The position numbers and the translations under genes were made by a program. Below, one piece after another: positions 20,388 through 43,949 of a stretch of 64,000 bases of DNA. This DNA is from Eledone cirrhosa. Taxonomy: Eukaryota. Numbering within the stretch: position 1 is the first letter of the stretch; each line of letters opens with the position of its first letter. A model generated the notes under the pieces. It ran no database searches. It worked only from the letters and a program-made list of their open reading frames with translations, and was not told the origin of the DNA. The stretch lies in NCBI GenBank assembly GCA_964016885.1, contig OZ024743.1:60698001-60762000 (forward strand), in the 5' to 3' direction.

Positions 20388-20798
20388 TGAGAGACGTAAA
20401 ATAAGAAAATTATAAAATTAACTTACTTACTAAAATTTCACTCCTATAGCAGGCAGGCCGCTGTCTTATTAACAAACCACTTTCCACTGATTGACCTCGA
20501 TGTCACGTGATTGATTCTTTTTGAATTTGCCACCGACGCAGAGGCAGTGATTTTCTCAATGGCTAGGAATTCAGTCCACGATTTGCTATTTTCTATCCAC
20601 TGAATTATTTTTGTATAAGTTTCCAGAGTCCTCGCTTTGCCTGGATACTTAGCTGAGAATAGTCTTCCCTGACGACGAAATGATATTCTATATTTTCTTC
20701 GGAAAGTATATTTATTCCATTTCAGAAACTAATTAGTTGGGAGTGAAATTTTAGTAAGTAAGTTAATTTTATAATTTTCTTATTTTACGTCTCTCATA
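20388..20798. mobile_element. HHR element with ~57-bp inverted terminal arms
   Basis: 20388-20444 is the reverse complement of 20740-20798. Confidence 0.75.
20664..20743 (+). ncRNA. Type I hammerhead (family e) with long stem II capped by cUUCGg
   Basis: cttcc-CTGACGA-cgaaatg...tatattttc-TTCG-gaaagtata...catttca-GAAA-ctaattag-TT^-gggag. Confidence 0.75.
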
Positions 20799-21724
20799 TT
20801 ATTGTTCTGCAACCCCATGCATTGAACCACAAAGTTACTAAGACAAAACCTATATATTTGCTAGCATTGATATGCATCTGTATGTATATATATGTTACTA
20901 GATATTAATTCTTTATATATATATATATATATATATATATATATATATATATATATATATATATATATATATATATATATATATATCAGGATAGAACCAG
21001 TTGAAAAATAGTTAGATTACTCGATTCTTGGGGTTGTAAAATATGGCTATATTATAAATAGTCGGGACACGACGGCTGATATCTTGCAGTTTTAACAGCT
21101 GGTTCCGTGCATGTGAGTGTACCTGTGTCTCGGTACGTATGTGTGTGTGAATTTATGCATATATATACTCTTGCATGTGTGTTTGTTCGTGTGTATTTAT
21201 GATGTAGCGCTTCGCCAAAACGATATCTATAAAATATATACCAGGCTTGAAAAATAAGTACTGAATTCAATGTAAACTACTAGTTCCCTTGAAGATGATG
21301 CACAAACATGACCGATTCTAATTGCTAAGGCACGTCATCGAAAAGAAGGTCAGTCGTGTTGGTCTATGTTTAAATCATAAGATCTCTATAGCATTTTGTT
21401 ATAGCCCTTAACTCCTGGTGAAACCGTAGGGCCGCCATCATAACATAAAACTAGCGGAGCCCATCCCTCTCGAGATCGGAGCACAGCTGACTTCCTCCAA
21501 AGAAATAAAGAGAGAGACAATAAAGGTGAGATAGTAGTCAGAAAGAGATATCAATAAGGAACCAAACCATTATGGTACTGGTTCTATATTTACCGTTCTT
21601 GAAGACAAATGAAAGGCAATGTTAATCTCGGCGGTTGACCCCAAAGCAAAGTGAAGAGGAAAATATACTGAGACATTTTTAATTCGTTGCTTGCAGTATT
21701 TTAATAGCCATAACATTTTATGCA

Positions 21725-22065
21725 TACTGTTGGGTCTCGAATAATCGCCCCCCCCCCCCCCCCCCCCTTCACCACACTTATTAATTTTAAGTCCCCCCCC
21801 CCTCTCCCCCGTTCTTATTCCAAAGCCCCACTTATTAAATGTTGTTAATCTATCTCCGGCGGAATGGTTGCATTCCTGCGACAATTAATATTCTACTTTA
21901 CAAGAAATCCCATATGTTATAAAATAAGACTGGGTAGGGGTCTCAATGTGTAAACTAAACGACGTATTCTGGTTTTTTAAAAATCAACGGAGACATCCCA
22001 GTAAAATTATTGATTCTCCAACATGCACCAATTCCCCCACCCTTATTATTTGGGACCCAAGAGTA
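21725..22065. mobile_element. Tc1/mariner-type MITE
   Basis: TIRs tactgttgggtctcgaataat / attatttgggacccaagagta with TA ends. Confidence 0.7.
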
Positions 22066-22159
22066 CATGTAAACATTTTTTTGTTTTTATTTTCTCAGCA
22101 TTTGTCACATCTGTCTGGTTTATTTACTATTAAATAAAATAGACACACACAGACGCACA

Positions 22160-22497
22160 TACTATCGGGTCCCAAATAATAAGGGGGTTGAAATAAGCGG
22201 AGTGGGAATGGAAAATCGGTAAGTTTTCTTGGTTGTCTCCGTTGATTATTTAAAAAAAAAGAATTAGCCGTTTAGTTTACATATTGAGACCCAAACCCAT
22301 ACTATTTATATTATAATGTATAAGATTTCAAGAAACGTACGTTTTTTTGTCATGTGTAATGTTTTTTTTTAATGCATAAAGAAAATTGATTATCGCAGGA
22401 ATAAATGCTACCACTTAAAATATAATTTCGCCGGAGATAGATTAACAAAATTCAATTAGCGAGGTGGGGGTGATAAGAGTGGGGAGGGACCCGAGAA
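22160..22497. mobile_element. Second, diverged copy of the same MITE in opposite orientation
   Basis: Starts tactatcgggtcccaaataataaggg; internal segments are reverse complements of 21850-22000. Confidence 0.6.
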
Positions 22498-22504
22498 TTT
22501 ATAT

Positions 22505-22625
22505 ATAATTGTTTCTACTTTAGGCACAAGGCCAGCAATTACCCAATGCATTACTGGTACTTTATTTTATCGACCCCGTAAGGATGAAAGGCAAAGTCAA
22601 CCTCGGCGGGATTTGAACTCAGAAA
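22505..22625 (-). mobile_element. tRNA-derived SINE family 1, 5'-truncated
   Basis: B box gagttcaaatcc; core gcctttcatccttacggggtcgataaaataaagtaccag; tail ccttgtgcctaaagtagaaacaatt. Confidence 0.85.
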
Positions 22626-23164
22626 ATTTATATATAATATCGCAAAGCCTGTTGTCCGACTTTCTCAAGATTTTTGCCACCTCGCCATCTTCCATTGAAT
22701 ATTGCATTTTGAATAACTTTGAACTGATTTCAGTTAACTGATGTTCCAGGGTCCTTTTTATTTCTATAGTTTACACGTGTCTACGGAATACTCACCCGCA
22801 TGGACCTAATTTCATAATCAAACTGGTTGGATGCTTCAACAAAGTAAATAATCGTCGTCCGAATCGATTGAGATCCAACACGCACACATACCCATAAATA
22901 CACAAGGTTTTGTAAAATTGGAGACCTGGTTTAAATATTTGCAACAGGGCAGCCTTCGTGAAAGACATACGAGGAGCCTGTGATGTTGTTAAATTGGGCG
23001 ACCGATTAAGTTTACCATTTAAGTGAGCAATGGAGAGATTATCACTCATAACAGAAAAAAACCATCCAACATTCTAGCAATTTCGCCAATTAAGCACACT
23101 TGACTGGCATTTCATTTATCGACCCCCGAAAGCATGAAAAGCTATATTGATCTCTACGTTTTTT

Positions 23165-23445
23165 GGGGGTTTTTTTAATGTCCGAAAAAATACGATCATG
23201 AATATAAGCGGTCGAAATGGGATTCCTCTGAAGGGTCTTTGTAGTAACCTTACTTGATAGACTGTGTAATTCGGAGATCAGATAGTTACTCAAGTTAGAT
23301 CCGCTACTTCTTGCTTGTGATCCATCCGGATCAGTTGGAGGCGGTTGCTTCTGCCAGGAACCGCTGGAAGGAGAATTTGAGGACTCTGCCCCCGCAACCA
23401 CGGCACTCTCAGGAATAAGTGGGCAAAGAAGAAGAAGAAGAAGAA
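23165..23445 (+). pseudogene. RTE-clade LINE 3' fragment with (GAA)n tail
   Basis: AVEMGFL*RVFVVTLLDRLCNSEIR*LLKLDPLLL resembles the RTE ORF C-terminus. Confidence 0.7.
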
Positions 23446-42126: not shown

Positions 42127-42201
42127 TGAACCTGAAGATGTCGTCAAGGTCTTGTATCATGATCGGATGGTGTAACTTAGCGATTGAAATATGTATAGTG
42201 C
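42127..42201 (+). ncRNA. Decayed hammerhead
   Basis: CTGAAGA-tgtcgtcaag...cttagcgatt-GAAA-tatgta-TA; stem I weak. Confidence 0.4.
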
Positions 42202-42354
42202 TTTCTACAACATTAAAACCTTAAAAGGATATTTCCAGACTGGTCTTCAGTGGTTTTAGTTATATATGTGTGTGTATATATATATACATATGTCCCAAGG
42301 CTCTGATACCATCAACACTATACACACAGAGTTGGCATATCTAAGAACTGTCTA

Positions 42355-42410
42355 ACTGCCTGATGAGGTCATAGCCATTCAATGGCTATCATCGAAATAT
42401 ATATAGCAGT
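42355..42410 (+). ncRNA. Type I hammerhead (family c), intact
   Basis: actgc-CTGATGA-ggtcatagccatt/c/aatggctatcatc-GAAA-tatata-TA^-gcagt. Confidence 0.82.
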
Positions 42411-42468
42411 AAATAAAGGATTATGAGTTCATGCAATTGACTTATGTTTCGTCACTATATATATATAT

Positions 42469-43210
42469 ATCTCCCCTGTTTGCTGAAAATTAAAGCAAGT
42501 GAGACTGTCACTACTCTAAAACAATAGGGGAAGGTCTTCGAAATGCTTTTAATTAAGCATACAGTGTGTTGCAAAATGCACTATATATACATTCATATAT
42601 ATATATATATATATATATATATATATATATATATATATATATATATATATATATATATATATATATATATATATATGAATGTATATATAGTGTATTTTGC
42701 AACACACTGTATGCTTAATTAAAAGCATTTCGAAGACCTTCCCCTATTGTTTTAGAGTAGTGACAGTCTCACTTGCTTTAATTTTCAGCAAACAGGGGAG
42801 ATAAAGCTGACAGGCTCTGTTTCGCACTTTTTGGTGCTTATCAAAGCTAAGTACTCCACCTGTTTGCTGAAAATCATGAATGTTTGATTCTTATAGAATT
42901 CTAGTAATAATCAGGACTGATTATACAGAGCGGTTGCCGGTCAAGCAGAAATTGAAAATTAGAATTGGTGCTCTGAAATACAGATATATATATGAATGTA
43001 TATATAGTGTATTTTGCAATACATTGTATACTTAATTAAAAGCATTTCTCCCCTGTTTGCTGAAAATTAAAGTAAGTGAGACTGTCACTACTCTAAAACA
43101 ATAGCGTAAGGTCTTCGAAATGCTTATAATTAAGCATACAGTGTATTGCAAAATACAGTATATATACATTCATATATATCGCTATTTCAGAGCACCAATT
43201 CTAATTTTTA
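42469..43210. mobile_element. Multiply inverted pLTR-like cluster (family k)
   Basis: 42469-42597 inverted to 42672-42802 across (TA)n; a further + copy from 43047; ~42955-43048 inverted to ~43117-43210. Confidence 0.75.
42781..42874 (-). ncRNA. Type I hammerhead with U3:A8 core (family k) and ~20-bp extended stem I
   Basis: agct-TTGATAA-gcac/caaaaa/gtgc-GAAA-cag/agc/ctG-TC^-agct, flanked by ttttcagcaaacaggtggag / ctcccctgtttgctgaaaa. Confidence 0.75.
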
Positions 43211-43309
43211 TATATATATATATATATATATATATATATATATATATATATATATATATATATATATATATATATATATTCATATATATGCATATAGGTA
43301 CATATATAT

Positions 43310-43444
43310 TGAGCTCCTCATTCTTGCTCTTGTGTTGGCATGTAAACAGAACAATGAACTGTACTGATAAAGGGTGATACCCAGAAACATTAGTGTCTGC
43401 AGTTCTGTTTACATACCAACACAAGAGCAAGAATGAGGGGCTCA
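43310..43444 (+). ncRNA. Hammerhead (family l, CUGAUAA core) capping a ~43-bp hairpin
   Basis: aactgta-CTGATAA-agggt/gat/accca-GAAA-ca/ttag/tG-TC^-tgcagtt; arms 43310-43352 / 43402-43444. Confidence 0.65.
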
Positions 43445-43949
43445 TTCTACTGATATGGCTTTAAAAATGAGGCTGCTTGCATAATTGCAAACGAATCGAA
43501 TATTATTATTAATATTAGAAAAACTCAGACTACATTTATTGTATTCAGCGATGTAGAGCGAACATTTTCTTTTATATATATATATATATATATATATATA
43601 TATATATAAGTGGTAACACAACATTTAGTTCACCATACCTAAATGTTGTGTTACCACTTCTACCTAACTCGTCCCATGAACTGAGTGCTCTACCACTACG
43701 GATATTACCTTCCAGTGTTCTACCTCTCTCTTTCTCTCTCTCTCTCTCTCTCTCTCTCTCTCTCTCTCTCTCTCTATATATATATATATATATATATATA
43801 TATATATATATATATATATATATATATATATAGGAGATGAGTTTTATTGTAGCTCAATAAAGCAATGCAAATATTGGATAAGTAGCACTCTACAGTAGGA
43901 CTGGAGTATAAATAATATAAGATCAAAAGATGGTTAAAAGAGTTCCAAG

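Follow-up and report, generated by a model that had tools for sequence, protein, structure and literature searches.

We analysed a 64,000-nucleotide (nt) stretch of the genome of the octopod Eledone cirrhosa (assembly GCA_964016885.1, contig OZ024743.1, positions 60,698,001 to 60,762,000), hereafter the window, and found that it carries hammerhead-bearing Penelope-like element (PLE) insertions, together with short non-autonomous derivatives, lodged in (TA)n repeats. AT-rich, microsatellite-laden eukaryotic DNA extends across the window, and the type I hammerhead motifs are concentrated at about 6.5-47.6 kb, with no convincing hammerhead beyond 48 kb in strict or relaxed scans. The strict scan returned 14 hammerhead cores against a mean of 0.57 (maximum 2) in 30 local dinucleotide shuffles, and relaxed rules returned more, so the hammerheads are not the product of chance. 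Upon self-comparison and alignment of the families a recurring plan emerges, in which a (TA)n run is followed by an inverted arm and then the main copy, and one side alone carries a 3' extension. This architecture is seen in families e, i, k, l, h, A, B, g and m, and an inverted, 5'-truncated copy adjoining the 5' end is found in all of these as well as in d and D. The letters e, i, k, l, g, h and m follow a first-pass annotation of this DNA, coordinates permitting, and A, B, D, d, j and o were set here, our family A being its family a. Partial tandems are formed by k (317 nt monomer), j (631 nt) and g (about 1235 nt), and by none of e, i and l. The one-sided tail measures about 32 nt in k, about 60 in i, about 77 in h, about 80 in B and about 87 in A, with no clear tail in e, and (TA)n flanks are present at the insertions. 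Terminal inverted repeats of DNA transposons were ruled out by the unequal arms, the tail on one side and the variable 5' ends.

Hammerhead cleavage takes place after H17, and positions below are counted from this cut, +1 being the first nucleotide past it. The first-pass annotation had reported that in four families the inverted copy starts a few nucleotides after the NUH of the ribozyme, and we recovered all of these ribozymes and all five arms as located. Its distances hold for family e, whose arm was put 1 nt past GUU and is identical to the family copy from +2 in an ungapped comparison (1 nt lost), for family i (3 nt past the NUH; identity from +4, 3 nt lost) and for family l (4 nt past GUC; identity from +5, 4 nt lost). 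The two k copies, k-42468 and k-43047, had been put 6-7 nt past GUC; they do start near the cut, but 5 and 7 nt are lost (identity from +6 and +8), with microhomology ranges of +6 to +9 and +8 to +10, respectively. All five starts fall inside the 3' strand of stem I. Family e is the cleanest case, the arm being joined to -293, far from stem I (-74 to -70); a second upstream copy of this family is absent from the window. Likewise, k-43047 joins +8 to +10 to -239 through 2 nt, a junction unrelated to stem I, and it matches copy k1 at 119 of 125 positions, its tail aligning to the monomer with 29 identities, 2 mismatches and 2 gaps. The orientation of k-42468 is tail-to-tail, unlike the head-to-head e, i, l and k-43047, and it forms a 131 bp inverted repeat around (TA)n 42595-42676. 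It is identical to its partner at 126 of 127 positions, other k pairs differing by 5-7%, and arose either by fold-back copying at the DNA level or as an insertion of its own that was homogenised later. In family l the main copy begins at about -44, right at the 5' strand of stem I, and as the window holds one l copy, the breakpoint is placed at +5 or later.

At the i locus around 43608 the ribozyme core is found in neither arm, and the locus can also be aligned as a central deletion of an i palindrome. Its arms are identical to each other at 21 of 21 positions and to another i copy at 17 of 21, and these shared derived bases favour two fresh cDNAs. Geometry excludes a single fold-back, the start being at +4 for the untailed arm and at +15 for the tailed one, and this points to two primings. 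Two further near-cut candidates had no counterpart in the first-pass annotation: an arm of about 10 nt in family h at +7 to +13 (47130 region), and a solo A copy whose end lies within -10 to +1, ambiguous because stem III is itself a TA repeat, and which was counted as -10.

The hammerheads of e, i, k and l are predicted to self-cleave after the NUH, the cut of family i being taken from its reference copy. In family e the minimum free energy structure is the hammerhead fold. Family k matches Rfam HH9 at 29.8 bits (E 3.9e-6), below the gathering score of 52, and family i gives a weak Hammerhead_1 match (16.3 bits, E 0.1); e and l have no Rfam hammerhead match and are recognised by their core motif and stems. 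On the whole window Rfam gave mostly AT-repeat miRNA noise, with one hammerhead (k) among the 150 of 269 matches listed. Stem I reaches +28 in k and +6 in i. A short palindromic stem III is present in A, B, D, e and g, U3-A8 variants occur in h and k, and h and j have a stem III of 5-6 bp and are predicted to fold as monomers. For e, i, k and l the predicted probability of the active fold in the monomer is 5e-5 to 4e-3, so that cleavage would need a dimer or the help of a protein. A split by C15.2-G16.2 (4/6) versus U-A (0/4) gave no significant difference (P 0.07). When 15 ribozymes were aligned with plain MAFFT, k and i fell out of register.

Next, we mapped the 5' ends of arms in the window relative to the cut. 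From the alignments 49 arms were curated by hand, 43 with a mapped 5' end and 6 with unknown ends that were censored; family o (34954-35098) and the degenerate cores at 9156, 42132 and 48021 stand outside the counts. For the null, arm lengths were permuted across arms, freely or within start class. We observe 6 of 43 ends at +1 to +10 against 1.5-2.2 expected (P 0.003-0.013), 6 of 35 without suspected re-mobilised palindromes (P 0.0006-0.0025), 4 of 30 also without tail-to-tail and possible deletion cases (0.8-1.1 expected, P 0.006-0.013) and 3 of 29 when l is additionally removed (P 0.03-0.04). Counted per junction, the same interval holds 6 of 24 (P 0.016), 6 of 20 with ambiguous cases kept (P 0.007) and 4 of 16 in the independent set (1.14 expected, P 0.019). 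On the other side of the cut, -26 to 0 holds 1 end in the independent set against 4.4 expected (P 0.024), and -26 to -11, which includes stem III and GAAA, holds 0 ends in 560 nt at risk. There is thus a modest edge in 5'-end density at the cut, with a deficit 5' and an excess 3' of it, the excess being a modest one carried by three or four events. The enrichment within 10 nt past the NUH, for which the first-pass annotation had proposed such a map, is therefore present nominally within the window (6/43), but it fades in a scan over any 10-nt window, as given below. Its proposed control for stem I microhomology divides the cases: e, k-43047 and i are not explained by it, whereas l is explained by stem I pairing.

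Table 1. Ribozymes, arms and insertions in the window; 5' ends are given relative to the predicted cut.
Feature	Position	Strand	Details
Family e type I hammerhead	20664..20743	+	CUGACGA at 20669, GAAA, palindromic stem III, GUU, cut after 20738
Family e inverted arm	20389..20444	-	5' end +2; 3' end adjoins (TA)n 20308-20388; 56/56 identical to 20740-20795
Family e main copy	20445..20795	+	5' end -293, head-to-head with arm; junction set by arm end
Family k hammerhead	42787..42861	-	U3-A8 core UUGAUAA at 42844, GUC, cut after 42809
Family k copy k3 (k-42468)	42468..42594	+	5' end +6..+9 against (TA)n; tail-to-tail with 42677-42803
Family k partial tandem	42677..43048	-	317 nt monomer + 55 nt, reads through ribozyme, 5' end -239
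Family k inverted arm k2 (k-43047)	43047..43207	+	5' end +8..+10, 2 nt microhomology, ~32 nt tail
Family l hammerhead	43356..43405	+	CUGAUAA at 43364, one core deviation, GUC, cut after 43397 (relaxed scan)
Family l inverted arm	43310..43352	-	5' end +5 or later; junction at stem I 5' strand; 41/43 to 43402-43444
Family i reference hammerhead	33921..33963	+	GUU, cut after 33957; mirror cut 33866 (-)
Family i short inverted arm	43608..43639	-	+4/+5 to +36, adjoins (TA)n
Family i tailed arm	43639..43723	+	+15/+16 to +97
Family i reference palindrome	33832..34059		Both arms through hammerhead, 5' ends -44..-51
Third family i palindrome	47200..47373		Main from -44, left arm in two pieces; colinear with 33832-34059
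PLE RT/GIY-YIG open reading frame, C-terminal end	29328..29498	-	CxLCxxE...LNxxxE...CxH; cut at family h inversion junction
Family h head-to-head insertion	28022..30408		Arms from -1460 and -811, both through hammerhead; cuts 28040 (-), 30311 (+); 830 bp inverted repeat, 97.7%
Family h palindrome	18686..18862		5' ends -30/-35
Family h palindrome	37645..37825		5' ends -27/-35
Family h small head-to-head pair	47074..47140		+39, ~10 nt arm +7..+13; central deletion possible
Family A palindrome	6538..6989		Both arms through hammerhead, 5' ends -121..-128
Family A solo copy	14919..15073	-	Identity from -10; -8..0 is a TA repeat
Family B head-to-head pair	7297..7515		5' ends -122 and +66
Family B long head-to-head pair	43833..45401		5' ends -448 and up to -952
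Family g partial tandem + inverted arm	24200..26069		5' ends -333 and -98; cuts 24270, 25505, 25935
Family m head-to-head pair, (TA)n filler	46247..46640		5' ends -149 and -98
Family d palindromes	20099..20280, 34228-34350, 47403-47602		5' ends -30..-36; possible hammerhead core (tentative assignment), stem I 5' strand absent
Family j partial tandem	38313..39331	+	631 nt monomer, two hammerheads, cuts 38441 and 39072, 5' end -128
Family o old palindrome	34954-35098		79%, degenerate hammerhead-like core, 5' ends near -28..-40; excluded from counts

The assignment to PLEs comes through family h, which retains the last 57 codons belonging to an open reading frame (ORF), its long arm starting within them. 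A full HMMER search with this 57-residue remnant returned 398 proteins at E<=0.001 (best 6.7e-13), and the longer homologues carry reverse transcriptase (RT) motifs, read by eye, and GIY-YIG motifs with a cysteine linker. Since the long arm of h begins in an ORF end that matches RT/GIY-YIG proteins, this family ties the plan to PLEs. The CX2-5CxxC-like linker between RT and endonuclease (EN) is found in homologues only and is not preserved in the window. Among 12 homologues scanned, one (P0052) gave a Pfam GIY-YIG match just under the cut-off (E 1.8e-4), and none of 4 did in another set; with the remnant itself, a word-index protein search yielded nothing usable (8 candidates) and Pfam 0 families. 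The elements are probably Neptune-like, a name suggested by the cysteine linker of the homologues, which is described for this type (PMC8557442). No second PLE-like ORF piece was found anywhere in the window by tblastn and two profiles, including none for e, i, k and l, which are therefore short derivatives or deeply truncated copies. A search with alignment A2 found PLE-bearing, apparently animal-derived contigs within bacterial genome assemblies at four loci (L001-L004), chosen for holding an ORF and hence biased to long inserts, and a P0160 search of a prokaryotic genome collection gave 0 of 52 stretches. L001 shows the same arm and tail plan, with its arm at -702 and a short start at +55, and at L003 (758-796) a hammerhead follows a pyrimidine tract inside the region matching the PLE ORF.

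Among the readings of these inserts, the one that we favour, tentatively and at somewhat less than an even chance, is that a PLE protein acting as a dimer made them by priming on two strands, with one cleaved RNA as the template in some cases. A PLE RT-endonuclease would nick both strands of the (TA)n target, two cDNAs would be primed from two start sites downstream of the ribozyme (a short start and a tail start), and the cDNA 3' ends would be joined head-to-head by 0-2 nt of microhomology or by TA filler, such as is seen at m. The architecture, the hammerhead motifs, the ORF remnant and the breakpoints are observed in the window; cutting and extension of two strands, the two start sites and a predicted dimer come from the literature (PMC11167929); and the double priming of each insertion is our inference. 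A staggered break primed twice would produce the head-to-head plan, in which the 3' end is short on one arm and tailed on the other. Most cDNAs would be made on uncleaved RNA and stop anywhere upstream, and in a minority of events one template would be the 3' product of hammerhead cleavage, on which the cDNA would run off at +1, with 1-9 nt then lost at joining. Such events would be e, k-43047 and i-43639, and l, k-42468 and the tiny h arm may belong with them. Cleavage would on this account be the cause of the starts at +2 to +8. A cleaved template has precedent: cleavage-defined 5' ends are established for R2, with its HDV-like ribozyme (PMC3774820), and have been argued from target-site duplications for Perere-3, with a twister ribozyme (PMC8501958). 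In both of these the ribozyme stands at the element's 5' end and is retained in the insert, whereas here it lies near the 3' end, leaving an arm of 30-165 nt without a core.

The earlier proposal that the arms are cDNA of self-cleaved RNA is partly supported by the excess at +1 to +10 and the gap at -26 to 0, and several observations count against cleavage as the cause. Upstream of the cut are 30 of the 43 mapped ends, which makes uncleaved RNA the main template. This agrees with PAc, a Poseidon element of Anolis for which cleavage was reported as dispensable in vitro and no RNA-seq reads were reported to start at the cut (PMC11167929). No arm begins exactly at +1, the interval +1 to +3 holds 1 end of the independent set against 0.7 expected, and for R2 a loss of target sequence and an addition of bases are described, rather than a loss of element bases (PMC3774820). 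Monomer folding does not separate the near-cut families (3.3-6.1 kcal/mol from the active fold) from the others (0.4-7.4; P 0.62), so that the most stable monomer ribozymes find no support as the source of the near-cut arms, and the best predicted monomer folders, h and m, are mostly read through. The inverted arms on two of the contigs from bacterial assemblies also start far upstream, the one of L002 at about -1500. The pattern could furthermore arise by chance and a bias towards short arms, in an interval that the first-pass annotation chose after seeing them: most arms measure 30-160 nt, beginning 20-57 nt past the cut in the short class and about 100-165 nt past it in the tailed one, so that some end close to it, there are only 16 independent events, and -20 to +20 holds 6 ends of the independent set against 5.8 expected. 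Without l, the per-junction count falls to 3 of 16 (P 0.058), and when any 10-nt window in -60 to +60 is allowed, P is 0.30 for the set of 24, 0.036 for the 20, 0.51 for the 16 and 0.90 without l. The interval +1 to +10, however, derives from the hypothesis, permutation of lengths within start class still gives P 0.007-0.02 and the upstream deficit has P 0.024, and we consider chance an improbable explanation.

An account by RNA structure, in which the RT stalls or switches template in the ribozyme helices (the 3' strand of stem I, later stem II and the core) and the cDNA ends anneal via the stems, is better placed, though on balance we hold it to be unlikely. Because all five near-cut starts lie in the 3' strand of stem I, stalling there is a possible cause. 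The l main copy starts exactly where the 5' strand of stem I does, and that arm would be explained without cleavage if one cDNA folded back onto its stem I copy; self-priming is also the published reading of palindromic PLE junctions (PMC3846280). Moreover, a second cluster of ends at -27 to -51 (12 of 43, in h, i, d and l), with a hazard of 1.72 per 100 nt against 1.55 at +1 to +10, shows ends gathering at the ribozyme without cleavage, and the h ends at -27 to -35 lie in the 3' strand of stem II. The sites of this cluster (18815, 37692, 33910, 47230, 20124, 47540, 34289 and 43353) lie at the 5' edge of the ribozyme, often in near-symmetric palindromes. When loci possibly derived from one palindrome are collapsed, it retains 6 of 30 ends (-50 to -27: permutation P 0.18-0.26, hazard P 0.02), and it could mark a start of transcription or a site of pausing, or consist of palindromes that were re-mobilised. 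Stem I microhomology nevertheless fails for e, k-43047 and i, whose partner ends (-293, -239 and +15) do not fall on the stem I strand that would pair with them. The polymerase would in k already have copied about 20 bp of stem I when it stops at +6 to +10, inside the helix and not at its start, which run-off fits better than stalling, and -26 to -11 is empty although it holds stem III and GAAA. DNA events after insertion, with a (TA)n hairpin fold-back making k-42468 and central deletions of palindromes making i-43608 and the small h pair, are a very unlikely explanation of the whole. They accord with the near-identity of k-42468 and its partner against the divergence of other k pairs, with +6 being one of 4 TAT/ATA sites in the k-42468 arm, with 13, 14 and 28 bp tail-to-tail repeats flanking other (TA)n runs, and with the alignment of i, d and h loci as deletions of a common palindrome. 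Such events leave e, k-43047 and l unexplained, and the shared derived bases of i-43608 would need fresh synthesis or later conversion. The causes can be mixed across loci, with stem I most likely behind l and a DNA-level event possibly behind k-42468.

Returning to two-strand priming with an occasional cleaved template, a more specific and rather doubtful version is that the head-to-head inserts record half-cleaved RNA pairs, in which a dimeric RT-endonuclease would hold a hammerhead dimerised via its palindromic stem III loops, one RNA being cleaved and the other unfolded by the advancing RT and read through, as in e, k and l. If so, the hammerhead would act in vivo within the integration complex as a ruler for the length of the inverted arm, and genome assemblies would be a direct read-out of PLE ribozyme activity.

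Upon comparison with known systems, the closest likeness is to EN-bearing (EN+) Neptune-type PLEs (Craig et al. 2021, PMC8557442; Arkhipova et al. 2013, PMC3846280), described with an inverted 5'-truncated copy, a 30-40 bp tail and a (TA)n target. The window likewise shows 5'-truncation, partial tandems, an inverted arm, a tail at one end and (TA)n, a hammerhead near the 3' end and, in homologues, RT with a C-terminal GIY-YIG and cysteine linker. It differs in holding just 57 ORF codons, in family h only, and in tails of about 32 to about 90 nt, and in the portions of those two accounts available to us the 5' end of the arm is not related to the ribozyme cut. For PAc (Frangieh et al. 2024, PMC11167929), both strands are cut and extended, two internal RT starts bound the tail and a dimer was modelled; the AT-rich target and the hammerhead upstream of the start sites are shared with our elements, and the difference is that some genomic arms here start 1-7 nt past the cut. 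The minimal hammerheads of PLEs (Cervera and de la Pena 2014, PMC4209133) are type I, with palindromic stem III, U3-A8 variants and opposite-strand pairs 100-700 bp apart, all of which recur in the window; h and j differ from them in their longer stem III and predicted monomer folding, and the parts of that paper covered here contain no breakpoint analysis. Non-LTR retrozymes, proposed to derive from PLEs (Cervera and de la Pena 2020, PMC7229834; bioRxiv 10.64898/2026.07.22.740005), are likewise non-coding tandem monomers with a type I hammerhead, as in k (317 nt). In contrast, we find only partial tandems (1.2-1.6 units), with inverted arms, and the monomers of j and g exceed the retrozyme monomer of about 300 nt. 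The arrangement that defines a retrozyme is found in j and g only, as e, i, k and l have one core per strand per locus.

The inverted-arm layout itself has thus already been published, and the elements appear to be ordinary PLE debris whose interest lies in the breakpoint pattern, which the window suggests without proving. That pattern seems to be unreported for PLEs: a full-text search, with most subscription papers and supplements outside it, found no paper mapping the ends of PLE inverted arms to the hammerhead cut. The function of the hammerhead in EN-bearing PLEs has been called unclear (PMC8557442), its cleavage in vitro is weak (PMC4209133), and PAc, the one reconstituted PLE, did not need it (PMC11167929). 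If genomic 5' ends showed a step at the cut, this would amount to in vivo evidence of cleavage in the germ line, would show that cleaved RNA serves as a template and would explain part of the inverted-arm structure. The role of the PLE hammerhead is a question that can be tested from a public octopod assembly alone.

Finally, we report several further features of the window. About 15 distinct hammerhead/PLE families are nested in one another's (TA)n tails within 41 kb (6500-47600), a transposon nest and possibly a small-RNA cluster. A survey of 95 (TA)n runs revealed perfect tail-to-tail repeats of 28 bp (33596-33675), 13 bp (33771-33845) and 14 bp (46219-46260), two of which copy the 3' end of a PLE arm. 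Copies of i and d retain at their 5' ends an acceptor-like TTTCAG motif, just ahead of stem I or the core (33914-33920, 47229-47235, 47539-47545), as a candidate for splicing only; in D. virilis an intron ends at helix I (PMC4209133). Outside the PLEs, a long interspersed nuclear element (LINE) with RVT_1 and zf-RVT is present in three copies that are 72-78% alike (11429-13657, 16072-18390 and 58982-60989), the first two mutually inverted, and the nearest named relative of the ORF at 16072-18372 is an Argonauta hians protein (62% identity, E 7.5e-285). A repeat of about 190 nt resembling a short interspersed nuclear element is abundant (22505, 34106, 41282, 41530, 48510, 54030, 54720, 58540 and 63857), with an inverted pair at 41319-41609. 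Half-cores CTGATGA/CTGAGGA with no GAAA nearby are found at 10159, 10933, 33451, 37518, 39370 and 39818, one of them in a 525 nt partial tandem (10139-10757), and they may represent other ribozyme topologies or half-core PLE motifs.

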